Positions 9,003 through 63,140 are shown, numbered from the stretch's first letter. The stretch is 64,000 nucleotides of DNA from Squalus acanthias (GCA_030390025.1 CM059431.1:106332001-106396000); one strand, 5' to 3'. Numbers and translations: made by a program. Notes: generated by a model not told the origin, from the letters alone.

Positions 9003-9502
9003 NNNNNNNNNNNNNNNNNNNNNNNNNNNNNNNNNNNNNNNNNNNNNNNNNNNNNNNNNNNNNNNNNNNNNNNNNNNNNNNNNNNNNNNNNNNNNNNNNN
9101 NNNNNNNNNNNNNNNNNNNNNNNNNNNNNNNNNNNNNNNNNNNNNNNNNNNNNNNNNNNNNNNNNNNNNNNNNNNNNNNNNNNNNNNNNNNNNNNNNNNN
9201 NNNNNNNNNNNNNNNNNNNNNNNNNNNNNNNNNNNNNNNNNNNNNNNNNNNNNNNNNNNNNNNNNNNNNNNNNNNNNNNNNNNNNNNNNNNNNNNNNNNN
9301 NNNNNNNNNNNNNNNNNNNNNNNNNNNNNNNNNNNNNNNNNNNNNNNNNNNNNNNNNNNNNNNNNNNNNNNNNNNNNNNNNNNNNNNNNNNNNNNNNNNN
9401 NNNNNNNNNNNNNNNNNNNNNNNNNNNNNNNNNNNNNNNNNNNNNNNNNNNNNNNNNNNNNNNNNNNNNNNNNNNNNNNNNNNNNNNNNNNNNNNNNNNN
9501 NN
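9003..9502. other. Assembly gap (500 N)
   Basis: Run of exactly 500 N adjoining the satellite. Confidence 1.
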
Positions 9503-22790: not shown

Positions 22791-22908
22791 GAAAAGCAAA
22801 ATACTGCGGATGCTGGAAATCTGAAATAAAAACAGAAAATGCTGGAAATACTCAGCAGGTCAGGCAGCATCTGTGGAGAGAGAAACAGAGTTAACGTTTC
22901 AGGTCGAT
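22791..22908 (-). mobile_element. Penelope-like family A 3' terminus (truncated within the hammerhead)
   Basis: Reverse complement is highly similar to 28978-29091. Confidence 0.8.
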
Positions 22909-23261
22909 GTGTGTTATCATTTCTCGAAAGGCCATCAATTTCTTACATTGAAATATTAAAGGGGTACCGCCTGCAATGTTTTCTCTAAGCTGAGTGGCCG
23001 TACAGTTATGGGAAAGGTCCCGCGCAGGCCGCTCACCGGCTTTTCCATTGTAAATATCGCGCACATGCAGAAATTTAAAGGGACCGCGCATTAAAAGAAA
23101 CAGGCCGCGCAGAACAGAGCACAGCTCACAGGGAACGTTGACAGCCAGTCCATTGGGCTGGTGAGCGATTACATAATGACTTAGAAGATTCTAAACACAT
23201 TAACAGCAACACAATGTAATGCAGCAAGAGACCACAAGAGCCTCGTTACTTTTTGTTTTCT

Positions 23262-24566: not shown

Positions 24567-25311
24567 GGCCCGAAAATTAGACCTAATACGCGAGAGTACG
24601 CACTGTGTACTCTCGCGTTTTAGGTCTCCAATTGCCGGTTTCTAGCATGCACTACGCATGCGCGGGAAACCGGCACTTCGTGAACTCAAAAGGGGGCAGT
24701 TCCTAAGTGAACCGCGTGCGCGCTACAGGCTGCGCGCACGCAGTGCACTTAGTGCTTTGAACGCGCAGGTAAGCATGGAAGATTTTGCACATAAAGAAAG
24801 GAGGCGTAAGACCCTCTTTTAACAAGGTAAGTAGTTAATTAAGTATTATTTAAAAAAAATTTCAACAGGTTTATCTTTTTTAGAGACTTTAAAGAAAGGT
24901 AAGTTTATTTTTATAACTTTTAAAAAGATTTTAAATGTTTTCAAAAATTTAATTTTTTGTTTAAAGTGGTTAATTTATTTAACTATACTTATTTTATTAA
25001 TGTGATGGCTTTTTAAAAAAAATTTAATTGAGGTTTAGCTGTTCTTTTGGGGGGGTATAGATTCATAGCTTTGACAGGTCTTCCTGTCAAAACTATGAAT
25101 GAAAGATGGTGTGCTGCCATTGGCTCTAACTGAATCACGTGATCCCAGAGCTCGCACGAACTAACTGCGTCTCTGGCTCACGCAAGCACTGCACAGCTGC
25201 AGCCTTGAAACTAAAGTTCGTGTGAGCCCGGAGGGAAAAGGTAGGCGCGCAGTGAGATATCGCGGGGAAGCCTGACCCCCGCAGGAACGCTCCGTGTTTA
25301 ATTTCTGGGCC
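24567..25311. mobile_element. Harbinger-like MITE with several internal hairpins
   Basis: TIRs GGCCCGAAAATTA / TAATTTCTGGGCC. Confidence 0.6.
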
Positions 25312-26620
25312 AGAACATCGAGACCAATTGTAGCACTCCTCCTGCCGTCCTGGGACACCTCACTCAGCGCAGAGTGAGATCGAGACTGGGACTTCCATGA
25401 TCTTGTGTGGTTCAGCTCCACACAAGATCATGGAACGTGTGCTTACTACTTCAGCCGTTGAGGAAGCACTTCAAAAAAGTTATTGAAAAGCTCTGCAATG
25501 GGAATCAGGAAATGTTGCTTTACAATGAACACAAAAATATTCCACACCGAGTGACCTGTAATTAGTTATCTGAATCCAAGCCAGCCTACGAAAGACCGTC
25601 TCACGAATCCCAAACAGCGAGATTGGTACGAAAGACTGGGCTGTGAAATCAATTAAAAAGTAATATCGTCTTGTTGAGAAGCCACCACTACTCCCTACAT
25701 CAAAGAAAGGAGGGCCTCAAAGCCTTAATTAATCGGCAAAGATACTGACTGTGAATCAGCTGCTCGAACGTAATTAGCTTGAGCAATTCGTCTGGCGAAT
25801 CAAGTACCACAGCTTCATTCCACAAAGAGCCAGTCATCCCGAACATGATAAGTGGAAGGAAGTTCAGTTGTAGGCCTGAGCCACAAGCTGCTGGAGGCGT
25901 CACCAGACATAACAATCAAAGAAAAGAACGACGTGTGTATTCGGGGAAGTGAGCTGCGGCATTGATACACCAACCGGCAAAACCAGCATTATCCTGGCAG
26001 GGACTTCAACCTCCATGAAGTTTGTCCTATTTGAGCTGGTGCGGCCGCACCATACGCTGGTGTGTCCACCAATACAATGTGCCAGCCAGCGGTTGCAAGT
26101 TCCTTACCTTGGGTATGATGTTGGGAGATGCACCCAGCAAAGTGACTTTACACCAAATCATTAAAATTAGTGCTACGAATGACAATGTTATCCTTGCTTT
26201 TTTCATCCAACACCAACATATATACTAGACCCAGTATCTTGGGTTGTATCCTGCAGTCATGAACCTCTCACCCATTTTGATCTACATTAAATTTCAAGGG
26301 ATAGAACTGGACTCAAAGCAGAGTCCTTTAATACGTTACACTGGTAACCACAGAATCTATAATCAGTAAGTCTTGTAACTTCGAAGTAGAATTTGGCTAA
26401 TAACATTATACTTTTCAAATATATATGCAAATCATATTATTGCCTTTGTAAACTCCTAATAAAATAAATGTTTCCCAGAAATAGATAACACTCTGCAGTT
26501 ATAGGGTAATCCCCTTCATCATGTGACTAACCAACTTTTAATGTTGACAGCTTTGTTGAATATTTGGGGCAAAACCATTCAGAATAATTTTGAAGCCTCG
26601 GATTGAATCCCTAAATAATG

Positions 26621-26796
26621 AGGTTATAGTCCAACAGTTTTATTTGAAATTACGAGCTTTCGGAGCGCTTCACCTGACGAAGGAGCAGCGCTCCGAAAGC
26701 TTGTGATTTCAAATAAAACTTTTGGACTATAACCTGGTGTTGTGCGACTTCTCACATTTGTCCACCCCAGTCCAACACCGGCATCTCCACATCATG
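26621..26796 (+). mobile_element. Penelope-like family B fold-back mini-insertion (copy 1)
   Basis: 49-bp inverted arms 26621-26669 / 26687-26735; tail ...CCAGTCCAACACCGGCATCTCCACATCATG; TSD CCTAAATAATGA at 26610-26621 and 26797-26808. Confidence 0.85.
26670..26706 (+). ncRNA. Minimal type I hammerhead ribozyme motif
   Basis: TCAC-CTGACGA-A-GGAGC/AGC/GCTCC-GAAAGCTT-GTGA: conserved core, stem II, palindromic stem III, stem I TCAC/GTGA. Confidence 0.8.
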
Positions 26797-27687
26797 CCTA
26801 AATAATGAAACCAACTACTAACATTTACCAGAGTGACAGCTTGTCAAAAAATTGAAACATTCATCGGTAGCGCAAAATGGGCGATGGTGAATTGGCAGCC
26901 TGGTTCACACCTCGCCCGATTTCCTTTTGCATTCCATCGCCCAGGTTACTTATCCGCTGGAAAGCTGCCAGGAACTCACTGTCCCGAAATTTTACGTGCT
27001 GGACTGAGCAGGAGTCAAGGAGGCCGGCTCAAAGCCTTCTTTGCGTGCGCATGTCAGGTCCCGATGACATAATCGGGCACCTGACTGCAATCTTAACTGG
27101 TGGCCTGAGCGGGGCAGCCAGTGTAGCTTTCCCACCAGGTCAAGACAGTGGGAAGTGGCGACTGAGCCAGAAGAGGCCCAAGCAGATGCAATTTTTTTTT
27201 TAATTTCCCCGTGGGTCAGAAGGAGCAGGATGGCTCTACAAGGAAATCCTAGGCCTCCTGTGCCACCAACTCCCCCCACCCGAATGCAATATCCCTACAA
27301 GATGTCCCACAAAGCCACCTAAGAAAGGGGCGGGCTTGTCGGCCTGGCGGTACTTAAATGAGGTTTGGGAGTTAAAAGAGCCCGGGCCGCATGTTGTAGG
27401 GTTCTCAAAATTCCCACATTCCCCAGAGTTATTAATAAGGGGTACCCTAGACAAAGTGGCTTCTAGACCTCGTGGCAGAAGCCTGCGACATTGAACAGAA
27501 ACCAGGGCCCTGCAAAAACAGCAGGCCAGGTGACATGCCTGGGTCTGTAAGAGAATTGCGAAATTCCCAGACCCCCAATAGACTCAGAGGAAAAGAGAGA
27601 GACCCTAAGAAAAAGGGGCTTTGGACATTTTAAAACCAATTGAGTGTATTGGACCAGGGACATTTTTAAACATGCCTGGGCAGATCT

Positions 27688-28680
27688 CACCCTTCCCTCA
27701 CCTTCACATGGTCCATCTCCGACTCTTCCCTTCCCTTCCTCGACTTCTCCATCTCCATCTCTGGGGATAGGTTATTGACTAACATTCACTACAAGCCCAC
27801 TGACTCCCACAGCTACCTGGACTACACTTCCTCCCACCCCGCCTCCTGTAAGGACTCTATTCCATTCTCCCAGTTTCTCCGTCTCCGCCGCATCTGCTCT
27901 GACGATGCCACCTTCCATACCAGTGCTTCCGACATGTCTTCCTTTTTCCTCAACCGAGGATTCCCCTCTACCGTGGTCGACACGGCCCTCGACCGTGTCC
28001 GTTCTATCTCCCGCACTTCTGCCCTCAACCCTGCCCCTCCCTCCCGGAACCACGATAGGGTTCCCCTTGTCCTCACCTTTCACCCCACCAGCCTCCACAT
28101 TCAACGGATCATCCTCCGCCATTTCCGCCACCTCCAGCGTGATCCCACCACCAAACACATCTTCCCCTCACCTCCCCTTTCAGCATTCCGTAGGGACCGC
28201 TCCCTCCGCGACACCCTAGTCCACTCCTCTACCACCCCCAGCACCCCTTCCCCTTCGCCCGGCACCTTCCCGTGCACGCGCAGGAGATGCAACACATGCC
28301 CTTATACCTCCCCTCTTCCCACTGTCCAGGGCCCCAAACACCCCTTCCAGGTGAAACAGCGATTTACTTGTACTTCCTGCAATTTAGTATACTGTATTCG
28401 CTGCTCACAATGTGGACTCCTCTACATTGGGGAGACCAAACGCAGATTGGGTGACCGCTTTGCGGAACACCTCCGTTCAGTCCGTAAGGGGGACCCCGAG
28501 CTCCCGGTGGCCTGTCACTTTAATTCACCGCTTCACTCCCACTCTGACCTCACCGTCCTCGGCCTATTACACTGTTCCACGGAAGCGCAGCGTAAGCTCG
28601 AGGAACAGCACCTCATCTTTCGTTTAGGCACGCTACAGCCCTCTGGACTCAATATCGAGTTCAACAATTTTAGATCATAA
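27688..28680 (+). CDS. 5'-truncated Penelope ORF: RT thumb region, Cys-rich linker, GIY-YIG endonuclease
   Basis: Uninterrupted frame from HPSLTFT...LPFLD...YKPTD..YL.Y.S.HP; CTRRRCNTC linker; LVYCIRCSQCGLLYIGETKRRLGDRFAEH; E..L...GLN motif; no start codon, so probably not expressed. Confidence 0.85.
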   Translation, partial: HPSLTFTWSISDSSLPFLDFSISISGDRLLTNIHYKPTDSHSYLDYTSSHPASCKDSIPFSQFLRLRRICSDDATFHTSASDMSSFFLNRGFPSTVVDTALDRVRSISRTSALNPAPPSRNHDRVPLVLTFHPTSLHIQRIILRHFRHLQRDPTTKHIFPSPPLSAFRRDRSLRDTLVHSSTTPSTPSPSPGTFPCTRRRCNTCPYTSPLPTVQGPKHPFQVKQRFTCTSCNLVYCIRCSQCGLLYIGETKRRLGDRFAEHLRSVRKGDPELPVACHFNSPLHSHSDLTVLGLLHCSTEAQRKLEEQHLIFRLGTLQPSGLNIEFNNFRS

Positions 28681-28960
28681 CCTCAGCTCCAATCACATTT
28701 ATATTTTATTTTTTCCACCCTTTTATTTGTCCCCCCCCCCACCTTTTTTTTTCCTCCTAGAAGCTGGCAGCTGTCCTTCATTCTGCCAGTGGATTTCACA
28801 CTTCATTCAGCCTTAATCTGTCACATTAACACCACCTCTAGCCTTGTATATCTCTTAATGTCTCTTAATGTCTCTTCATCTCCCCCTTTGTTCCTTTATC
28901 CCCTCCCCCTTTTCCCAGCTTTACCCTGGCCTTAAATCTATTTGATTTCCGGCTCTTCCC

Positions 28961-28997
28961 AGTTCTGATGAAAGGTCATCGACCTGAAACGTTAACT
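28961..28997 (+). ncRNA. Minimal hammerhead ribozyme motif (family A)
   Basis: AGTT-CTGATGA-A-AGGTC/ATC/GACCT-GAAACGTT-AACT. Confidence 0.75.
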
Positions 28998-31534
28998 CTC
29001 TTTCTCTCTCCACGGATGCTGCCTGGCCTGCTGAGTTTTTCCAGCGTTTTCTGTTGTTATTTCGGATTTCCAGCATCCGCAGTATTTTGCTATCGTACAA
29101 ATGAACAACCATCAGACCAGCAATCATCCTCCACTTAACAAATATTTAATATCGTTAAAGGCCATCTCCTGCCATTAAAGTTAACGACCTTAACGAGCCC
29201 ACCAGAATTAAACAAAGCACTGGGAAGATTTGGCGGGCAAATAAGGAACAATCGAAGAGTATAACTTGAGACCTGTGCTGGAACAAGGGGGAGTTCTACA
29301 GAGATGAGACTGGCAGTTTTGCAGCCTAGCAGTTTAAAACAAGCTGTTCAAGTCGCACAGACAGACCACAAGCAGGACAGCTGAAGCACAGGAGTTCTCC
29401 AGTACACAGTTCAACAGAAAACAAGACCGTTCAACAAAGAAGGCCAGCAGCTCCAGAAACCGACCGACACGCAAGAGGAAACCAGAGCCACGGTTCCAGT
29501 GACCATCAAACACCTCGAGGCACAAGGGCCTTATGAAACTTTTACTTAAAAGGACTTTAAACTATATCTCAACTGTCAAAGGATTCGTTTGGTGAGCATT
29601 ATCCCTGGTCCTCAAGAGTCTAACTTAGCTAGTAAAGTGGGGTTGGGAGGGGTGAGGTATTGTTCTACTGTTATTTCCCTCGTTTGTACCGAAGTTAAGA
29701 TTGACATGTTATGTTTCATCTCTGTTAAATAAACATTGGTTTTCCTTGCACCAATCCACAGGTCTGTTCGTTTGTCCTTATCGCCGCTCGATAAGTCCTG
29801 GGCTCAGAACTAGGAAGTGGATAGCGATTCGCAACCGCACAACGGGCAGGACAGTCCAGGAAAACATAACTGGCTGACCTACAAATAAGCCCGAGACAAA
29901 AAACCCTTACAATGTCTGAAGCAGCACATGAGTTTCCAACTCTCCTCGCTACCCACCCACCCGAAACCCGCTCGGAGTTAAAATCGGGGCCCGCTAGTTT
30001 TTGAAGTTTGATTCATTACTAAACAGATTTGAACTCGGTTAATTCGAGTTATCTGAGCAGGTAAATTGAACAGTTGAGCCTGATTAAATTCAAACATCGA
30101 CACAACAGAGCAGTCAGTCCTCGGAAAACAAATCCTGACGTTAATAATTTATGGAAAAGACTGCAGGAGCCTAGCTATCCCAATGGTTCAGTTGGTGAAG
30201 GAGGCAAATAGACCAGAAGGCCTTTCGTTTGAAAGTCTGCGGTGAGTTAGCAGCTCTGAGCGGGGTTGACAGCTGAGGGATCACAACTGACTTCACCTCC
30301 CCTGGATTGGGATTGGGAAAAATCAGTCAGGGCTCTTGCTGCTGATTGCTCATCCATGGCCACCCGCTGGGAAATGCATGAATGTGGGGACCAGAAGGAG
30401 CCTGTCAATCACAGAACTGTATCCCAGGAGCAGTCGGTGGTTGGAGGAATGGAGTAAAGGGAAATATTGGCATACACAAAAAAAACCTGCAGTATCTCAA
30501 GAGGGACTTCTAGCTTTTGCATCACATATATAAGACAATATCATATTAGAAGCATAACCTGCTGTGTAGAGGTGGGAACGAATAGATGTAACAGGTGTGC
30601 AGACTGAACGAGTGATGAAATACCTCCGTGATGGTTGCCAGGTTACTTTGAGCCACTTTCATTTGCTGGGGTGTTTTTTTTGGGGGGGGAAGAGAATATT
30701 GTAAAAATGTTACTTTTTTTTCTGGGACTGAACCAATTTCTTGCATTTATATAGCGCCTTTAACATAGTAAAACGTCCCCAAACGCTTCACAGGAACAAA
30801 ATGTATTACCAATGGGCAGCTTCATAATATAATCATGCCATTAATGAACCGAACGAGATCCTTTGTTTTCAGGTCTGATAAAGTATATTTGCAAGGCAAT
30901 GTTACCCGAAGACATTATGTCCTAGTAAGGCTTGGACCTTCACAAACCCCCTCCTCCCGAATTTCAGGAGAAGCTGTTACGTGCTTTAGGCAACAGACAC
31001 TGAAGTTCAAGGAAGATTCTGAAACCCAGCAATAATTCAGCTGATAGAAAGGCACAACAGGGGGTACTGCACAATGAGGATGATCGATTTTTAAATTTAC
31101 TCCGATTTAGAGACGTGTGTATTTCACGCTTAACAGCAAGATAAAACAATCATATAGGAAGGTGCCATGAAAAAAAAAACACACACCCGGTATTTCGGAA
31201 GCAAAATAAGACAAGGGGGTTATTCCAGTGTTTTAAGTGGGAACAACTCTGTGGACGATTACAATACTGGCGGTGTTTAAGTGCTTGACGCAGTGAACCT
31301 GACAGCAGATGCAGGTGTGCAGCAGCTTGACAAGGATTCAAACTGTTCCTGAAACTGGCAATTTATCGAGCGGCTAGTTCCTGTGGGGCACCGCAGAAGT
31401 AGCCAATCAGGACCTTGTCATTTATTTCACTTTAGTTATTACAAGGGTAAGTCTCTAAAAAAATTTTTAAAAAATGCACCAAAGCACGAGTGAAAATAGT
31501 GTGGGCAATTAATTAAAACAGGCAGAGTCCCAAC

Positions 31535-31650
31535 TTTTTCCAGTTCTGACGAAGGGTCATCGACCTGAAACGCTGACTCTGTTTCTCGCTCCACAGATGC
31601 TGCCAGACCCGCTGAGTGCTTCCAGCATTTTCTGTTTTTTTATTTCAGAG
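31535..31650 (+). mobile_element. Penelope-like family A 3' module with hammerhead
   Basis: CAGTTCTGACGAAGGGTCATCGACCTGAAACG...GATGCTGCCAGACCCGCTGAG..., homologous to 28955-29065. Confidence 0.8.
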
Positions 31651-33432
31651 TCCTGACGCTGACTGTTCCTCACAGGCACTTTTCTTTTTACAGATGTCAC
31701 TATTGTGATGAGTTCATCACGTTGTGGCTGAGAATCAAGCTGTGGCCTCTGAACCGATTCACTTTGTTCACTTGTATCTTTTCTTTATCTTTTGAAGTTT
31801 TCCTGCCCATTATCTTTTCCCCTTTGGTTCTCCTTTACTCCTTGTTTCTGTTTGAACTCTTTCTCCCATTTAATGTATTTGCCTGTTTCTATTCTTTCCT
31901 CCTCTGATTTGCTTTTTAATATTCCCACCTTCTGTCTTTATTTTTTGCTGAACACCGTTTCTCGCAGTTCTGCCCCTTGCCCTTGATGTCTTTCTTTTTC
32001 ACACTATCTCTGTTTCAGTTTGTATTACATGTTACTCCTGTCACTCAGTATCTGTCAGCGCTTTCCTCTGATTATGGTCCTTTTGAACATCACATCTTGC
32101 CCTTACTGCTCCTATATTCCAATTATCTGTCTCTCTGCTGCCTGCTCTACAGGGTTGAGGGAGAGTCAGTCTCGCAGTCTTTGCGGAGCTGCTACTGAAT
32201 CTCGGGTTTTATTGAAGCCAAGATAGAAATCAGTGGGCTGGCGACACGGCATCGAAATCCGTCAAGTTACTGAATAACTGATCTCCCCCCCGCCACCCAT
32301 GTTACTGAAGGGAAGCATCAAGTGAAAACCAGAGATAGTCTCATTCCTGGGATTTTCTGGGTTGTCCAAACCAAAATAGCTCTGACTGAGAGATGGGCGC
32401 TGGTCACCCACCTCTCGAGAAAAATTAACACTTAAGGCTTTTGAACCAGAAAATGGTTTTATTTACGTGAGACTAATGAATGAACAGTAAGCAGTATGGC
32501 ACAGTGAAATATATCTTTATCTATTCTTCAATTCATGCTTGTGTATCTGGCTGGATTTTGGGGAACCAGAGATATTTTGTTCTACCACGGCCAATATGAC
32601 CACTGAGTGATTTCTCAGGGACATCCGAGAGGAGAGATACAATGAGGTTCGCTCTTTTACCAGGGTGATAATTCAGCACACGATAGAGATTCTGGTATTA
32701 TACCCAGTCAAGAGGAGCCTTGCAGTCCTTCCCTTCAGGGCTCTCCAGGATAACTGTGGTGGGCTACATGCTCCACAACTTGACTCTGACCAAAGGAATA
32801 GACATTCAGGTGCCTCATTAAGAAATTCCAGATGGGCGAGCCCATGCAACGATAGTATTCATATTAGATAGTGTTTAGTCATGATGGTCCAGTCATCATG
32901 GTGTGGGGCAGGCTTGATGGACCAGCTGGTCTCTTCCTGTGTGTTATTTTTCTATGTTCATCTCTCGCCGATGGTCATGACAAATGGAGACCAGAATTAG
33001 GGACCGAACAAAGGGAATTTATCCTCATTTAAAAAAAGATAGGAATTAGAAGAATGAGAGGTGATCTCATTGAAACATGTAAAATTCTTACAGGGCTTGA
33101 CAGGCTAGATGCAGGGAGGATGTTTCCCCTGGCTGGGGAATCTAGACAAAATTGAGAGGTCGCACAACACCAGGTTATAGTCCAACAGTTTTATTTGAAA
33201 TCACAAGCTTTCGGAGCTATCGATTGCTCCTTCCTCAGGTGAAGTAAATTAGATACAGAATCGCCAAAGCATATATAGATAGAAAACAAAGCATGTGTAC
33301 CTTACAATTGCAGACCACTAAATTAAATCATCCTGACTATCTGCCGAGGTGTGATAAAGTTAATTAAGTCAGCCAGGAAGGTACCACATCAAAGACATAG
33401 CAAGATACAACTGAGACAATGAGGTGTAGTCG

Positions 33433-33939
33433 CAGCCGCCTAACCTCAGAAGTACCATCGTTCGCAGCAAATTACCCAGCTTTCAGGATAACAGCGACCA
33501 CGACACCACACAACCCTGCCATGGCAAACTCTGCAAGACATGCCAGATCATCAACACAGATACCACCATCACACGTGAGGACACTACCCACCAGGTACAT
33601 GGCACATACTCATGTGACTCGGCCAACGTTGTCTACCTCATACGTTGCAGGAAAGAATGCACCGCGGCATGGTACATCGGCGAGACCATGCAGACACTGA
33701 GACAACGTATGAACGAGCACCGCGCAACAATCGCCAGGTAGGATTGTTACCTCCCAGTCGCGGAACACTTCAGCAGTCAAGGACATTCAGCCTCGGATCT
33801 GCGGGTAAGCGTTCTCCAAGGCAACCTTAGAAACACACGACAACGCAAAATCATCGAGCAGAAACTGATAGCCAAGTTCCGCACTCATGAAGACGGTCTC
33901 AATCGGGATCTTGGGTTTATGTCACGATACATGACGTGA
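33433..33939 (+). pseudogene. Penelope GIY-YIG endonuclease C-terminal fragment with one in-frame TAG
   Basis: Manual translation: QPPNLRSTIVRSKL...PCHGKLCKTC...CDSANVVYLIRCRKECTAAWYIGETMQTLRQRMNEHRATIAR*DCYLPVAEHF...IEQKLIAKFRTHEDGLNRD; TAG at 33739-33741. Not shown in the ORF track. Confidence 0.9.
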
Positions 33940-34269
33940 TCCGGACTCGAGTCGTCGTTAGCTTGTTCACAGATGTGATTCCCAGTAAAAAAGTAAAAAT
34001 TTTCCCAGTAAAAAAGTAAAAATTTTAAAGCTTTTCGTTTTACATACAGACGGCAGCTTTTGACACGTTAGAACCCCTGCGACTACACCTCATTGTCTCA
34101 GTTGTATCTTGCTATGTCTTTGATGTGGTACCTTCCTGGCTGACTTAATTAACTTTATCACACCTCGGCAGATAGTCAGGATGATTTAATTTAGTGGTCT
34201 GCAATTGTAAGGTACACATGCTTTGTTTTCTATCTATATATGCTTTGGCGATTCTGTATCTAATTTACT

Positions 34270-34311
34270 TCACCTGAGGAAGGAGCAATCGATAGCTCCG
34301 AAAGCTTGTGA
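34270..34311 (+). ncRNA. Minimal hammerhead ribozyme motif (family B); mirror copy on the minus strand at 33201-33242
   Basis: TCAC-CTGAGGA-A-GGAGC/AATCGATA/GCTCC-GAAAGCTT-GTGA. Confidence 0.8.
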
Positions 34312-35384
34312 TTTCAAATAAAACTGTTGGACTATAACCTGGTGTTGTGCGACCTCTCAATTTTGTCCACCCCAGTCCAACACCGGCATCTCCGCATCAT
34401 GGGGAATCTAGAGCCAGGGCTCACAGTCTCAGAATAATGGGTCGGCCATTATGGACTGAAATGAGGAGAAATTTCTTCATTCAAAGGGCTGTGAATCTTT
34501 GGAATTCTCTACCCCAGAGGGCTGTGGATGCTCAGTCGTTGAGTATATTCAAGGCTGAGATCGATAGATTTTTGGATATTAAGGGAATCAAGGGATATGG
34601 AGATAATGCGGGAAAGTGGATTTGAGGTAGAAGATCAGCCATGATCCTATTTCTTATGTTCTTATGTCCATAAAAAGTGTTTGTGCCGCTATGGTACAAA
34701 CTTGCTATGCCCACCACCCATGGTGGCATGACAGCTTTGATGCCAGGTGCTCGAGAAACCAGGACTGCCCAAAAACGTGTCAATACCCCTTTAATTAACA
34801 GTCTGAGGTTCCCCACATTTCTCCAATTGTTCTTCTCTGCTTTAAAAACACAAAGAGAATTACACTTGCAGCTAAGATGAATTGTCAGCTGTACCACATC
34901 CAAGAGTGCTACCTCTTAGAGTTAGGTAGTTTTGCACTACGGGAGGCAAACTTTACACCTAAGGAAGTCCTTGCCCACTGCCAGCGTGCATCAGAAGACC
35001 ACCGGCAGAGTAGTGGCAATTTTCTGGTATGCACTGGTGACAGCTGGGGAGAGACGCAAAATCGGCAGTGCTTAGTAAGAGATAAACCACTCAACATAAG
35101 CATGAAGCATTCTTTATTGAGAGACCAACCTGAACAGGACAAGGCCATAGAGTGAACGGAGTAAAAGGGAGAGCAATGTAAATCAAGGAGTGGTGATTAG
35201 GCAGCGTCAAGCTTCATGATAAAAGTCTTCAGATTGTAATTAATGGAAAGAATGAAAGACATAAGAACTTGCACAATCTTTTAAGGGCCTGGGAAAGACT
35301 GAGCTTGAATAGAAGGCACTGCAATGAGTCTTAATTTCAGCATAATAAGGATACAACAACAATTTGCCTTTATATAGTGCCTTT

Positions 35385-37958
35385 AAGAACATAAGAACAT
35401 AAGAAATAGGAGCAGGAGTCGGCCATTTGATCCTTCGAGCCTGCTCCGCCATTCAATAAGATCATGGCTGATCTTCTACCTCATCTCCACTTTCCTGAAC
35501 TATCCCCATATCCCTTGATTCCCTTAATATTCAAAAATCTATCGATCTCTGTCTTGAATATACTCGACGACTGAGCCTCCACAGCCCTCTGGGGTAGAGA
35601 ATTCCAAAGATTCACCACCCTCTGAGTGAAGAAATTTCTCCTCATCTCAGTCCTAAATGGCTGACCCCTTATTCTGCGACTGTGCTCCCTGGTTCTAGAC
35701 TCCCCAGCCAGGGGAAACATCCTCCCTGCATCTACCTGTCAAGCCCTGTAAGAATTTTGTACGTTTCAATGAGATCACCACTCATTCTTCTAAACTCTAG
35801 GCCTAGTCTACTCAATCTGTCCTCATAGGACAATCCCCCCATCCCAGGAAACAGTCTGGTGAACCTTCGTTGCAATGTATGTTGCAATGCAACCTATGGC
35901 AAGTATATCCTTCCTTAGGTAAGGAGACCAAAACTGTACACAATACTCCAGGTGTGGTCTCACCAGGGCCCTATATAATTGCAGTAAGACGTCTTTACTC
36001 TTATACTCAAATCCTTTTGTAATAAAGGCCAACATACCATTTGTTTTCCTAATTGCTTGCTGTACCTGCATGTTAACTTTCAGTGATTCGTGTACAAGGA
36101 CACCCAGGTCCCTCTGAACACCAATATTTCCCAATCTCTCAATATTTAAAAAAATACTCTGCTTTTCTGTTTTTCCTACCAAAGTGGATAACTTCACATT
36201 TCTCCACATTATATTCAATTTGTCATGTTCTTGCCCACTTACTTAGCCTGTCTATATCCCCCTGAAGCCTCCTTGCATCCTCCTCGCAACTTACATTCCC
36301 ACCCAGCTTTGTATCATCAGCAAACTTGGATATATTACATTTGGTCCCCTCATCCAAATCATTGATGTTGATTGTGAATAGCTGAGGCCCAAGCACTGAT
36401 CATTGCGGTACTCCACTAGTTACAGCCTGCCAACTCGAAAATGACCCATTTATTCCTACTCTCTGTTTTCTGTCTGTTAACCAATCCTCAATCCATGCTA
36501 GTATATTACCCCCAATCCCATGAGCCCTAACTTTGTTTAATAACCTCTTGTGTGGCATCTGATCAAATGCCTTCTGAAAATCCAAATACACCACATCCAC
36601 TGGTTCCCCCTTATCTATTCTGCTAGTTACAACCTCAAAAAACTCAACAGATTTGTCAAACACGATTTCCCTTTCATAAATCCTATTATTATTTTCTAAG
36701 TGACCTGTTACCACATCCTTAATAATATTCTAGCATTTCCCCACTACTGATGTCAGTCTAACTGATCTGTAGTTCCCCGTTTTCACTCTCCCTCCTTTCT
36801 TAAATAGTGTGGTTACATTTGATCCCTTCCAATCCACGGGAACCGTTCTAGAATCTATGGAATTTTTGAAGATGACAACCAATGCATCCACTATCTCTAT
36901 AGCCAACTCTTTCAAAACCCTAGGATGTAGGCCATCAGGTCCAGGGGATTTATCGGCTTTCAGTCCCATTACTTTCTCCAGTAATACTTTTTTACTAATA
37001 CTAATATCTTTCAGTTCCTCATTCTCGCTAGACCCTTGGTTGTCCACTATTTCCGGGAAGTTTTTTGCATCTCCTTCCGTGAAGACAGACACAAAGGGTT
37101 GGATTTTACCAACCCTGAGGATGCGGGTTTGGATGCGGGACTGCTGGGAAATGGGAAAAATTGGGACCCGTCTCCTAGCAGCGGGAAGGGGATTAGAGCC
37201 AATTAACTGCCTGTTAACAGAAAATTAACAGGCAGTTAAGAGGCTTTTCCCCATTTTCAGCCTGCTGATGTGGCCTTCCCGATGGCGGGAAACCCTGCCA
37301 GGGTCAGCGAGGCGAGCTGTGGGTCTGCTGCAGTGTAAGTGTGCAAATGACAGCTGCAGAGGTAGTGTGATGGGTGCAATGGTGCACAGGTAAGTATGAC
37401 AGGTGAGAGAATGTAGTGAGAAATATTTTTATTCTGTTTATATGTATCTGCAGGTGACAAGATTTGATGTTTCTGTGAAGCCTCATCTGATCGGGAGAAT
37501 TGACAGATGGCTTCTGCAATCTCACATGCAGCTGCCACCTGTTTTCTCCTAAGGAGAGAGTCATTGGTGAGCCTGGGTGAAAGGGCTCACCTTTGGACAG
37601 TGATTGTCAGTGTTTGACAGCACCTCAATGCTGTCAAACACTGACAATTCATCTGTCAAAAATTTATGGGGCCTGTCCCTATAAGAAAACCGGCAGATGA
37701 AGTGTCGTCAACTGACGTCATCTGACACCAGCTTTCCCTTAATTGGCTGGCAAGCCCGCAGGGCGGGCTTAACAAGGCCAATCAGGGGAAAATAGTGTCT
37801 ATTCGTAAGACGTCGCTGGGGGCGGGACTCGAACCTGGAAACCAGCAGTCCCGCTCCCAACGTGCCTCCTCAGGTAAGATTGCGGCCAAAGTATTTGTTT
37901 AATTTCTCTGCCATTTCCTTATTCCCCATTATAATTTCTCCTGTCTCAGCCTGTAAGG
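35385..37958 (-). mobile_element. CR1 LINE, ~1.8 kb of degraded ORF2 (RT) plus 3' UTR, interrupted by a MITE
   Basis: KSPGPDGLHPRVLKEL, PVDVVYLDFQKAFD, VTSGVPQ, LVRPHLEYCVQFWSP motifs with frameshifts; (AAGAACAT)n tail. Confidence 0.92.
37096..37887. mobile_element. Harbinger-like non-autonomous element in CR1
   Basis: Ends GGGTTGGATTTTACC / GGTAAGATTGCGGCC; AAA duplicated (37093-37095, 37888-37890); CR1 sequence joins cleanly across it. Confidence 0.7.
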
Positions 37959-41980: not shown

Positions 41981-42513
41981 TCCTCAAGTAAGGAGTTTGA
42001 TGGAATACTCTCCACTTGCCTGGATGAGTGCAGCTCCAACAACACTCAAGAAGCTCGACAACATCCAGGACAAAGCAGCCCGCTTGATTGGCACCCCATC
42101 CACCACCTTAAACATTCACTCCCTCCACCACCGGTGCACTGTGGCTGCAGTGGGTACCATCTACAAGATGCACTGCAGCAACTCGCAAGGCTTCTTCGGC
42201 AGCACCTCCCAAACCCGTAACCTCTTCCACCTAGAAGGACAAGGGCAGCAGGCGCATGGGAACACCACCACCTCCACGTTCCCCTTCAAGTCACACACCA
42301 TCCTGACTGAGAAGTATATCGCCGATCCTTCATCATCGCTGGGTCAAAATCCTGGAACTCCCTCCCTAACAGCACTGTGGGAGTACCTTCACCACACGGA
42401 CTGCAGCAGTTCAAGAAGGCGGCTCACCACCACCTTCTCAAGGGCAACTAGGGATGGGCAATAAATGCTGGCCTTGCCAGTGATGCCCAGATCCCATAAG
42501 CAAATAAAAAAAA
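41981..42513 (+). mobile_element. CR1-group LINE 3' end (second family)
   Basis: QVRSLMEYSPLAWMSAAPTTLKKLDNIQDKAARLI...SLHHR; 3' UTR GGGATGGGCAATAAATGCTGGCC and A-rich end. Confidence 0.85.
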
Positions 42514-47648: not shown

Positions 47649-48184
47649 CAGGTTGAGCGTCCAAAATACGGAGTTCCGGAGGGTCGTCCGGAATCGTGAA
47701 AATGTTCCGGAATCCAGAACTCCGGATTTTGGACGCTCAACCTGCACAACAAAAAGCCATTAACTTTTGATGTCTTTTTTTGAAAAATCCTATGAAAAAT
47801 GCGAGTGATGCAATAAAACTTTAGTGTTGTGTGTTATCCTCCTTAATCTGCACAGCTCCACTAAGTGTTTCCGCCAGGCTGCGGCCACGGCACCACGCCG
47901 CCCTGGTGGCCTAGTGTGGGCCATCAGATGCTCTGCAGAGCTCGCAGCCTCCCTCCCCTTTAACAGAAGGGGAGGGGCGGAGAAACGCGTCAGCGCTACG
48001 TGGAGCGGCCCAGGCATTTCCTGACTCGGAACGTGTTTCTGATGTCCGAAGTCCGGAAACACCTGAGCCCAGGTTGCGATATTTCCGGACTTCGGACATC
48101 AGAAACACGTTCCGAAGTCCGGAAAAACACGAAAACCAGCTCGGCCTCGGTCCCGAGGTTGCCGGATTCAGGACGCTCAACCTG
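47649..48184. mobile_element. Tc1/mariner (Tigger/pogo-like) MITE
   Basis: TIRs CAGGTTGAGCGTCC / GGACGCTCAACCTG flanked by TA on both sides; extra internal TIR ending at 47744. Confidence 0.85.
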
Positions 48185-48423: not shown

Positions 48424-48890
48424 TGTAACAGTGAGAGAGGGATGATCTGTAAGTCATAGGATGTTGAGAGCTCTGTATCCAAGATAGGGATACAACTTTA
48501 ATAAAAGGCAGGATAGCTTTAAGAAATCATTGACCTTAAGTTACCTTCAATCAGGAACAACTCCCAGCCTGCAAGAATGAAAGGCAGGGAAATGGTTCAG
48601 TTGGGAGAGAAAGGAACCGAGAGGGATAAGAGGTAGCTGGAAAGTAATACCTGTCTTGTTCATTGCCAGAAGTAAAGACACCACATCGGTGAATAAACCT
48701 CACCTTGTTTAAGCTCCAATCTGCAAGTCTAATTAACCATCGGGTTCCAGGCCTGCTTCAGCTTGTTACATATGGTGTCAGGAGTGGGATTTTGGCACTC
48801 TGAGAAAGGCCAAGACCCACCATCATGGAGGAAATGCTGAGAGCATTCATGCAGGCTACATTGGCACAACAAGTCCAGACTAAATCTTAA
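48424..48890 (+). mobile_element. Gypsy-type LTR retrotransposon 5' end: LTR, PBS, start of gag, then truncated
   Basis: LTR TGTAACA...TGTTACA (48424-48770) with AATAAA; PBS TGGTGTCAGGAGTGGGAT (48773-48790) complementary to the tRNA-Leu 3' end; short ORF MEEMLRAFMQATLAQQ at 48825. Confidence 0.8.
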
Positions 48891-49386
48891 AACAAGTGAC
48901 ATTTATTCACCCACGGAGTGCCTTTACTTGCAGCAATGAACACAACAGTGATCGGTATTACTTTCCATCCTACCTCTTATCCCTCTCAATTCCTTCCTCT
49001 CCCAACTGAGCCAGTTCCCTGCCTTTTATTCTTACAGGTTATTAATTATTATTCCTGATTACAGGCAATTAAGGGCAATGATTTCTTCAAGCTATACCGC
49101 CTTTTATAACTTCTTAAAGTTGCATCCCTATCTCGGATACAGAGCTCTCAACATCCTATGGTTCACATATCTTCCCTCTCTCGCTCTGTTACATAATTCT
49201 AAATCCAAATCAAATCAAGCAAAAAAAGAAACAAGGGAAAACAAAATATACCAATGTACGAAAGCAAAAGGTTCAAGAAAAACTGAATAAAACCAAGGAA
49301 GAAGAAAATAGAAAGTTAAAAAAGGCACAAAACTCAATAAAGGGTGAAAAAGGAAAGGCTGTCACAAGGTAAAAGAAGAAACAACA

Positions 49387-50780: not shown

Positions 50781-51014
50781 AAGTGAGAAGTCGCACAACA
50801 CCAGGTTATAGTCCAACAGCTTTATTTGAAATCAGAGGCATTGTTCTCTGTCTATATATGCTGTGCCGATTTGTATTCCTTCACTTCACCTGACGAAGGA
50901 GCAGCAGCTCCGAAAGCTTGTGATTTCAAATAAAGCTGTTGGACTATAACCTGGTGTTGTGCGACTTCTCACTTTTGTCCACCCCAGTCCAACACCGGCA
51001 TCTCCGCATCATGG
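50781..51014 (+). mobile_element. Penelope-like family B fold-back mini-insertion (copy 3)
   Basis: 54-bp arms 50781-50834 / 50921-50974; loop homologous to 34220-34310 containing a hammerhead at 50886-50923; same tail; no clean TSD. Confidence 0.85.
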
Positions 51015-61274: not shown

Positions 61275-61728
61275 AAAAAGAAAGACTTGTATTTATGTAG
61301 CGCCTTTCACAACCTCAGGACGCCCAAAGCGCTTCACAGCCAATTAAGTACTTTTATTTGAAGTGGAGTCACTGTTGTAATGCATGAAACACGGCAGCCA
61401 ATTTGCACACAGCAAGCTCCCACAAACAGCAATGTGATAATTACCAGATATTTTGTTTTAGTGATGTTAGTTGATGGATAAATATTGGCCAGGACACTGG
61501 GGAGAACTCCCCTGCTCTTCTTCGAAGTAGTGTCATGGGATCTTTTACACCCACCTAAGAGGGCTGACCGGGCCTCAGTTTAACGTCTCGACTGAAAAAC
61601 AGCAACTCTGACAACTCACTGGGGAATAGCAGCCTAGATTTTCTGCTCAAGTCTCTGGAGTGGGACTGGAACCCACAACCAGTCTAACTCATAGGCGAGA
61701 GTGCGACCCACTAAGCCATGGCTGACAC
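61275..61728 (-). mobile_element. Full-length Deu-domain tRNA SINE (SacSINE1-like)
   Basis: Head GTGTCAGCCATGGCTTAGTGG...GGGTTCCAGTCCCACTCC, Deu core, L2-like tail. Confidence 0.85.
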
Positions 61729-61738
61729 TTATGAATAT

Positions 61739-61937
61739 AAATGAGAAGTCGCACAACACCAGGTTATAGTCCAACAGTTTTATTTAAAATTACGAGCTTT
61801 CGGAGCTCCGCTCACCTTTACCTGAAGAAGGAGCGGAGCTTAGAAAGCTCGTAATTTTAAATAAAACTGTTGGACTATAACCTGGTGTTGTGCGACTTCT
61901 CATTTTTGTCCACCCCAGTCTAACACCGGCATCTCCG
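61739..61937 (+). mobile_element. Penelope-like family B fold-back mini-insertion (copy 4)
   Basis: 75-bp arms 61739-61813 / 61831-61905; hammerhead 61818-61854; TSD CACTTATGAATAT at 61726-61738 and 61938-61950. Confidence 0.88.
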
Positions 61938-62635
61938 CACTTATGAATATGTTTGACAGAGAAATGTTACACAAAGGCGTTAACACAATTTAACACCCCT
62001 GTTAACAGTGGAGGATTTTCACACCAACGTGTTCATTATTGTGATTAAAACCTAAATTCTTTCTGGATATTGCATGGTATCTGATTGGTAGCAGGGCTAC
62101 CGCCATCGCAAGCAGAGGTCCCTAATCATAACAGCGCTACTGTGCTGGAAACGCCTTGGTGCTATCTTTAGTCTGTAGCTGGATTTGAATCTGGTGTGGG
62201 CTTAGTGTTTGCAACCCAAACTGTTTCATTAAAAAAAAAGAGGCAATTAGTTTGAGATTTCACATCTTTTTACCTATAATTCATTTTTCTATTTTAAATA
62301 TTTCTACTTATTACTTTCGCCGCTGTTGGGACTACTGAGCGTAAGGCTGTTATTTTTACAGGATAATACAAGCCTTTTGAATGTTGGCGTTGAGGGGAAA
62401 GAGTACTTAGATGCTTGTAGTGAAGCAGGAATTTGTGTAGAAGTAGGAATAAAGCACTTTAACTTATTTATGCTGCTGTGCTCTTTTATTATTCAGTGCA
62501 GTACTTAAGGCTCCCAGGTCCTGGTTGGCCTTTTACCAAAATACCCCTATATGTTTTTGTGTAGCTCTAAGTTATCTTCCTGTTTGCTGCCAATAAAGGA
62601 GCACAGCTTAAATAAGTATGGGCTTGTTAACTTTT

Positions 62636-63140
62636 ACCACCTAGAAGGACAAAGGCAGCAGGCGCATGGGAACACCACCACCTCCAAGTTCCCCTCCAAG
62701 TCACACACCATCCTGACTTTTTTTCATTCATTCACAGGATGTGGATGTCGCTGGCAAGGCCGGCATTTATTGCCCATCCCTAATTGCTCTTGAGAAAGTG
62801 ATGGTGAGCCGCCTTCTTGAACCGCTGCAGTCCGTGTGGTGAGGGTGTGCTTCCACAGTGCTGTTAAGGAGGGAGTTCCAGGATTTTGACCCAGCGGCGA
62901 TGAAGGAACGGCGATATACTTCCAACGTCGATATATTTCCAACTACCGTTGCTTTATCGTCGCTGGGTCAAAATCCTGAAACTCCCTCCCTAACAGCACT
63001 GTGGGAGCACCTTCACCACACGGACTGCAGCGGTTCAAGAAGGCGGCTCACCACCACCTTCTCAAGAGCAACTAGGGATAGGCAATAAATGCCGGCCTTG
63101 CCAGCGACGCCCACATCCCAGGAATGAATATATATAAAAA
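62636..63140. mobile_element. CR1-group LINE 3' end with an inverted copy of its own 3' end inside it
   Basis: Plus 62636-62718, minus 62719-62923, plus ~62944-63140; all homologous to 42227-42513. Confidence 0.8.

Follow-up and report, generated by a model that had tools for sequence, protein, structure and literature searches.

Penelope-like elements (PLEs) typically carry an inverted, 5'-truncated copy adjacent at their 5' end and a 30-40 bp tail at one end, and Naiads, which are without canonical hammerheads, often carry an inverted copy and a tail as well, according to the available text of Craig et al. (2021, PMC8557442), where the formation of tandem and inverted PLE structures is an open mechanistic question. 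In Penelope of D. virilis the commonest structure described carries terminal repeats that are inverted and vary in size, with a 34-bp repeat mentioned as well (PMC2377424), while the rotifer elements Pen2 and Pen2a show inverted pLTRs, a tail and TSDs of 8-10 bp (PMC3846280). A curation guide lists such structures among the known peculiarities of PLEs (PMC8969392), and pairs of hammerhead motifs on opposite strands, 100-700 bp apart, have already been reported (Cervera and de la Pena 2014, PMC4209133); sharks do not occur in the main text of that paper.

Biochemical work is available for PAc, a Poseidon-clade PLE of Anolis carolinensis (Frangieh et al. 2024, PMC11167929). As far as the available portion of that study goes, purified PAc cleaves and extends both target strands in vitro and initiates at two internal positions that lie on either side of the tail, the start site showing no difference between the two strands. 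A dimeric protein is predicted, insertion in vitro proceeds normally with hammerhead mutants, and inverted arms are not analysed in that text (PMC11167929).

The window, a 64,000-nucleotide stretch of Squalus acanthias (GCA_030390025.1 CM059431.1:106332001-106396000), was searched with the main unit at 33140-34405 (blastn, word size 7, E<=0.01), which returned four copies of the family and no others. All four contain an inverted arm and follow the same order, namely an inverted 3' copy, a 5'-truncated direct copy and an unpaired tail. The fold-back architecture given for all four in the preliminary description is thereby confirmed, and alignment of the arms reproduces the lengths it had reported (49, 291, 54 and 75 bp). 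Four fold-backs out of four bound the true fraction at only at least 47% (one-sided 95%). The units span about 175-1260 bp, arm lengths, loops and inner junctions are different in each, and the tailed direct copy is longer than the inverted arm in every case; no full-length copy of the family was found in the window. The features are as follows.

33134..33146, plus strand: left TSD of the main copy, 13 bp, its final 2 nt common to the arm
33145..33435, minus strand: inverted arm of the main copy, an exact duplicate of 34077-34367, with a second hammerhead motif at about 33201-33242
33433..33939, plus strand: end of the 5'-truncated ORF, with CX4CxxC linker and GIY-YIG endonuclease; stop at 33739-33741
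33940..34234, plus strand: 3' untranslated part, family sequence and not captured host DNA, covered by contigs in all four sequencing runs mapped
34235..34271, plus strand: predicted pLTR promoter, with TATA-like box and initiator-like A at 34267; putative function
34270..34311, plus strand: minimal type I hammerhead of predicted activity, predicted cut 34307/34308
34325..34382, plus strand: conserved 9-bp stem, 34325-34333 paired with 34374-34382
34368..34401, plus strand: unpaired tail, 34 nt, to the family's common 3' end
34400..34412, plus strand: right TSD, its first 2 nt common to the tail
26610..26808, plus strand: second copy, with TSD 26610-26621, arm 26621-26669, direct part 26668-26796 and TSD 26797-26808
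50781..51013, plus strand: third copy, with arm 50781-50834 and direct copy about 50835-51013, without TSD
61726..61950, plus strand: fourth copy, with TSD 61726-61738, arm 61739-61813, direct part about 61814-61939 and TSD 61938-61950
26621-26669 and 26687-26735: arm pair of copy 26621, 49 bp, 3 mismatches
33145-33435 and 34077-34367: arm pair of the main copy (33145), 291 bp, 0 mismatches
50781-50834 and 50921-50974: arm pair of copy 50781, 54 bp, 0 mismatches
61739-61813 and 61831-61905: arm pair of copy 61739, 75 bp, 2 mismatches

The 3' untranslated part of the main copy also contains a tandem duplication of roughly 23 nt at about 33978-34025.

The family is almost certainly a PLE with an already known architecture, and the membership proposed earlier is supported by the endonuclease, the linker, the hammerhead and the structure of the units. 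Inside the main copy lie the final 168 codons of an ORF, interrupted by a single stop (33739-33741) that is private to this copy when compared with the sequencing-run contigs. Against PF01541 (GIY-YIG) the ORF piece yields an E value of 1.7e-4 and 22.3 bits, slightly below the cut-off of 22.6, and 43 of 179 candidates proved to be relatives. The best of these, P0002, is a shark protein that includes an RT domain; its C-terminal residues 477-643 align with 99% of the piece at 85% identity. The RT domain (PF00078) and a DKG motif are present in the nearest relatives (P0002, P0008 and P0023) and lie outside the truncated copies of the window. A C-X4-C-xx-C linker occurs at residue 29 of P0001 and in all four relatives checked. 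According to the available text of PMC8557442, a CX2-5CxxC linker between RT and endonuclease marks Neptune and Nematis, and Penelope and Poseidon are without it. Judged from its sequence, the linker of this family is of the Neptune/Nematis type, and its presence rules out the Penelope/Poseidon clade. Neptune and Poseidon are recorded from vertebrates in a preprint (10.64898/2026.07.22.740005, in part), on which basis Neptune would be more fitting than Nematis. As a separate observation, the endonuclease piece of this family, at 66-83% identity, lies within annotated isoforms of shark host genes (P0009, P0013, P0018, P0025, P0028 and P0038: cytochrome P450, NOXP20, septin 5a, XRCC5, PPP1R12A and IQ-domain K), which are either exonised insertions or annotation artefacts.

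Compared with canonical EN+ PLE units, as far as these are described in the available portions of PMC8557442, PMC3846280 and PMC2377424, the family shares the 5'-adjacent inverted 5'-truncated copy, the one-sided 30-40 bp tail, a TSD around the unit, a hammerhead in the terminal repeat and a GIY-YIG domain at the C-terminus. An inverted copy is present in 4/4, a tail of 34-39 nt in 3/4 (61 nt in the remaining one) and a TSD in 3/4. The family differs in that its units are mostly very short and without a tandem second ORF, its TSDs measure 12-13 bp as against 8-10 bp in the rotifer examples, and its three TSD-bearing sites are not microsatellites. Two other classes were considered and rejected: a MITE, in view of an unpaired tail of 34-61 nt, sizes of about 175-1260 bp and four different loops, and a non-LTR retrozyme (head-to-tail hammerhead tandem arrays), as all four copies are single and dispersed. 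A single master MITE with identical loops, named in the preliminary description among the observations that would overturn its claim, is not what the window contains, since the four loops differ.

TSDs enclose the whole unit in three of the four copies (12 bp at 26610/26797, 13 bp at 33134/34400 and 13 bp at 61726/61938), in agreement with the 12-13 bp claimed for three copies, and arm and direct copy therefore arrived together; the chance expectation for a 12-mer in the search box is about 6e-5. The 13 bp at 33134 represent a real duplication, because the sequence of the empty site can be aligned across the junction to two further copies of the host repeat that the insertion interrupts, in which it is continuous. 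For copy 50781 a TSD was searched for with mismatches allowed and none was found, and no target motif was visible by eye at the three TSD sites.

The unpaired tails measure 61 nt (copy 26621), 34 nt (33145), 39 nt (50781) and 34 nt (61739); the last copy stops 5 nt early, so that its tail amounts to 39 nt from the common end. In family coordinates the arms start at 34340 (26621), 34365-34367 (33145), 34362 (50781) and 34362 (61739). The stereotyped start ascribed to three copies is thus borne out (34362-34367 in 3/4), the chance of three of four starts falling within 6 nt being 0.004-0.08 according to which span is assumed; copy 26621 is off the cluster, its arm beginning 61 nt from the 3' end. 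Microhomology at the outer junctions is 0-2 nt, possibly 3 at one of them, against the 1-3 nt proposed earlier, and it is not clearly above the null, given few junctions and a probability of about 0.16 for 2 nt or more. The inner junctions of copies 26621 and 33145 overlap by 2-3 nt, and in the main copy the final 3 nt of the arm also belong to the first ORF codon, which would correspond to a microhomology of 2-3 nt. Two inverted arms terminate within hammerhead stem II, and in copies 26621 and 61739 the direct part starts 6 and about 8 nt, respectively, ahead of the hammerhead core.

All four direct copies contain a minimal type I hammerhead, comprising stem I, the core, a bulged A, stem II and a palindromic stem III, with a predicted cleavage site between 34307 and 34308; Rfam at gathering scores gave no matches. 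In a covariation set of nine sequences (the four window copies, three related loci and, from the other PLE family of the window, two copies), 97.7% of cells are paired and 7/10 pairs have changed on both sides, against 0-1/500 shuffles as high and 26-41% pairing in slid controls, for a structure drawn from the same nine sequences. Folding energies of the hammerhead and tail pieces were not exceptional relative to shuffles (z -0.7 to -1.7). The positions of the family's motif (10.1, 11.1, 15.2, 16.2) are numbered by the hammerhead scheme. As far as the metazoan PLE minimal hammerheads are described in the available text of PMC4209133, the family's motif shares with them a short stem I, a bulged base before stem II, a G10.1-C11.1 pair and a palindromic 15.2-16.2, whereas its stem II has 5 bp compared with 7-8 bp. 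Downstream of the hammerhead, the 9-bp stem is retained in three related elements, and the outer ends of all four inverted arms fall inside its loop.

Counted from the hammerhead core of the main copy, a TATA-like box is placed 39 nt upstream and the initiator-like A (34267) 7 nt upstream; a similar box lies 37-40 nt before the core in copy 50781 and in the related loci L003 and L006, while none was found before the core in L005. The short copies 26621 and 61739 may accordingly be run-offs to the 5' end of a transcript and not random truncations. However, stalling at the hammerhead accounts for their starts equally well, and the internal promoter described for D. virilis Penelope is without a TATA box (PMC2377424, in part), so that the transcript-start reading is treated as a lead only. 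Run-off on hammerhead-cut RNA was also considered: the predicted cut lies 1 nt from the end of the arm in copy 50781, while the other arms extend 16, 20 and 231 nt past it, and the idea was rejected because one of four is not distinguishable from chance. The predicted cut site is traversed by 3/4 inverted arms and 4/4 direct copies. The family's 3' end (34399-34401) finishes on ATG, as do the aligned ends of L005 (a contig end) and L006, and this terminal ATG may be the start codon of the ORF.

PAc and the family are alike, on the available portion of PMC11167929, in having two internal starts that bracket the tail, a stem-loop start region, a minimal hammerhead and, about 40 nt ahead of its core, a TATA-like box (for PAc, from the printed template). 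They differ in that the family carries a CX2-5CxxC linker, which Penelope and Poseidon lack, and in that its 3' end lies about 95 nt past the hammerhead cut, on ATG, whereas the PAc ORF starts inside the hammerhead.

Beyond the window, the family stretch is present in 20 of the 24 listed sequencing runs, from nine studies; the best-matching runs may be the source sample. With 235 to 24,467 contigs per run on the stretch (four runs mapped), the family is evidently high-copy. Among the loose ends listed for run X3, 69 contigs leave the stretch behind 34400 and 87 behind 34401, with mixed flanks beyond, and the common 3' end is therefore fixed. Nine joints were listed, two of them with a strand change (34267/34302 and 33635/33756, one contig each); five of the nine touch a GATC site, which suggests a proximity-ligation library, and the joints are for this reason not taken as evidence. 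Summed depth in the bin 34327-34359 exceeds that of the tail bin 4.3, 1.4, 2.9 and 2.6 times in the four runs, which matches two arms per tail but is not evidence, as contig depth cannot rank parts. Exact-pattern scans gave no matches in metagenome contigs or viral contigs and one in prokaryote genomes, rejected as a 24-nt chance match with flanks unlike the family; a protein scan of viral contigs confirmed 0/54 candidates.

Five related loci from marine metagenomes (L002-L006) were compared, and in four of them an inverted element piece is joined at the start of the direct copy, the exception being L006. The piece duplicates sequence within the direct copy in L002 and L005, and in L003 and L004 the visible inverted part lies further 5', where the contig ends. 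In L003 the direct copy starts at residue 467 and is apparently tailed, and the inverted piece reaches residue 111. In L1 twin priming, the second target nick primes cDNA, producing a 5' inversion with junction microhomology inside TSDs, and the inverted part derives from further 5' on the same RNA. L003 and L004, ending before any overlap is visible, also fit twin priming of this type on one RNA. The inverted part of the shark family, unlike that of L1, duplicates the 3' region up to the tail, a contrast drawn in the preliminary description and supported by the arm alignments.

The window holds a second hammerhead-bearing PLE family (27676-29091, 31531-31645 and 22795-22909; about 32% protein identity to P0002), consisting of one long truncated copy and two short pieces. 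None of its three copies has an adjacent inverted arm, against 4/4 in the main family (Fisher p 0.03), and the share of fold-backs may differ between PLE families. Copy 31531, which is flanked by an 8-bp TSD of its own, stops 25 nt before the point that the other two reach; an end without the tail can thus arise in the primary insertion.

These data are probably best explained by two-nick priming of a high-copy EN+ PLE in all four insertions. The element's enzyme would nick both target strands 12-13 nt apart; one nick would prime RNA copying from the tail end, yielding the direct copy, and the other would prime at a second start about 35-40 nt upstream, in the loop of the conserved 3' stem, yielding the tail-less inverted arm. 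The two cDNA ends would then be joined over 0-3 nt of microhomology, and fill-in would make the TSD. Both primings would usually read the same source element, as one tandem transcript or two transcripts of one locus, and sometimes two different source elements, with the hammerhead riding along and not needed for inversion. Priming at both target nicks, as put forward in the preliminary description, is retained as the best model, PAc having been reported to prime both strands in vitro (PMC11167929, in part); priming of both nicks, one at each start site, would give exactly this unit, a step that is putative for the family. The clustering of arm ends, all four in the conserved stem loop, counts for this model, as do the tail-less end of copy 31531 and the arrangement in L003. 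Against it stand the off-cluster arm of copy 26621, the missing TSD of copy 50781 and the absence of arms in the second PLE family (0/3), and since PAc shows no strand difference in its start site in the text available, the model leaves the tail on one side unexplained.

Whether the two primings read different templates depends on copy 26621. Its arm shows 3/41 differences from its own direct copy and 1/41 from copy 61739, and each of its two arms corresponds to another subfamily variant. Of the two variants shared, one accounts for about a fifth of the depth at 34310 (runs X3 and X1), and the variant pair goes with a compensated stem I in copy 61739. Independent mutation as the source of this mosaic has a probability of 2e-4 to 4e-3 over four copies. 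The pattern suggests two templates, as read from these variants, and ectopic gene conversion could be the source in this one copy. In the other three the arms share their own copy's variants, with 291/291 identity in the main copy, so that the claim of two RNA templates finds support in copy 26621 only. The main copy shows about three near-private changes in 641 nt against none between its arms (P about 0.07), which hints at an already dead source or at homogenisation of the arms.

The principal competitor to two-nick priming, though a rather doubtful one, is fold-back self-priming, in which the 3' end of the tail-primed cDNA folds back at a match of 2-3 nt, uses its own strand as template until close to the tail and joins the other target end. 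In a published variant, antisense RNA self-primes, and palindromes at inverted junctions were read as self-priming by authors who preferred a form of this model (Arkhipova et al. 2013, PMC3846280, in part). A single folded molecule fits just as well with the longer tailed copy in 4/4 and with arms that are identical or share private variants in 3/4, and it is also favoured by the 2-3 nt overlap at the inner junctions of copies 26621 and 33145 and by the two arms that end within stem II. However, it fits poorly with copy 26621, whose two subfamily variants would demand the improbable independent mutation given above, and a fold-back on tail-primed cDNA cannot give L003, where the inverted piece extends further 5' than the apparently tailed direct copy; it also offers no reason for the arms to stop at the tail boundary, which the two start sites known from PAc supply.

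The remaining explanations fare less well. A hammerhead dimer, with two RNAs joined via the palindromic stem III as templates in a route special to hammerhead-bearing families, draws on the minimal type of the motif with its palindromic 4-nt stem III, on reports that such motifs need a dimer for cleavage (PMC4209133, in part) and on the two templates suggested by copy 26621. It is nevertheless improbable, and the corresponding earlier suggestion is not supported: Naiads invert without canonical hammerheads (PMC8557442), PAc hammerhead mutants insert normally (PMC11167929), both as far as the available texts go, most arms and all direct copies pass through the predicted cut, and the window's other hammerhead-bearing family has no arms. 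The perfect arms of two copies and the presence of other, unrelated hairpins in the window could point away from retrotransposition altogether, to copies of one MITE, later inverted duplications or assembly fold-back artefacts. Such an origin is very improbable and largely refuted by the TSDs and the differing junctions; arm lengths and loops also differ in all four, the repeat stops short of the right end, the 12-13 bp TSDs surround the unit with a continuous empty site, the arms of the other two copies are imperfect, and inverted pieces recur in related loci from other assemblies.

Other inverted structures of the window are recorded here in their own right. At 62628-63129 a SINE/LINE-type repeat, not a PLE, is broken up by an inverted duplicate of its 3' part (400-bp fold-back, 86% identity), with an uninterrupted relative at 42218-42496. 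A 770-bp imperfect inverted-repeat element at 48424-49193 (74% self-match), for which a TSD of 7 bp or more was sought and not found, may be an old DNA transposon. Several short hairpins without relation to the family, 40-110 bp in size, lie at 47649-47744, 48017-48125, 24579-24752, 25061-25100, 25393-25435 and 37592-37661, and a 500-N gap at 9003-9502 adjoins a long degenerate short-period repeat array.

The fold-back architecture is ordinary for PLEs and leaves the picture of the class unchanged. The new integration route special to this family, as originally claimed, is therefore not upheld, since the structure is the published PLE norm (PMC8557442 and PMC2377424, in the portions available) and inverted pieces occur in 4/5 related loci. 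In the PLE literature surveyed, mainly open-access, no statement of the two-template or transcription-start points was found. Short PLE hairpins of this kind can be misfiled as MITEs by annotators, and a young vertebrate family present in many copies, whose arm contains subfamily variants, provides a computational test of two-nick priming against fold-back. A joint reading, offered only tentatively, is that this family mainly yields fold-backs, built on two RNA templates that were primed separately, with the short copies running from the tail start to the 5' end of the transcript. If this holds, both start sites, the point where transcription begins and the way in which templates pair would be readable from thousands of hairpins across the genome, and how the inverted repeats of PLEs form would be decided by the subfamily variants in paired arms.
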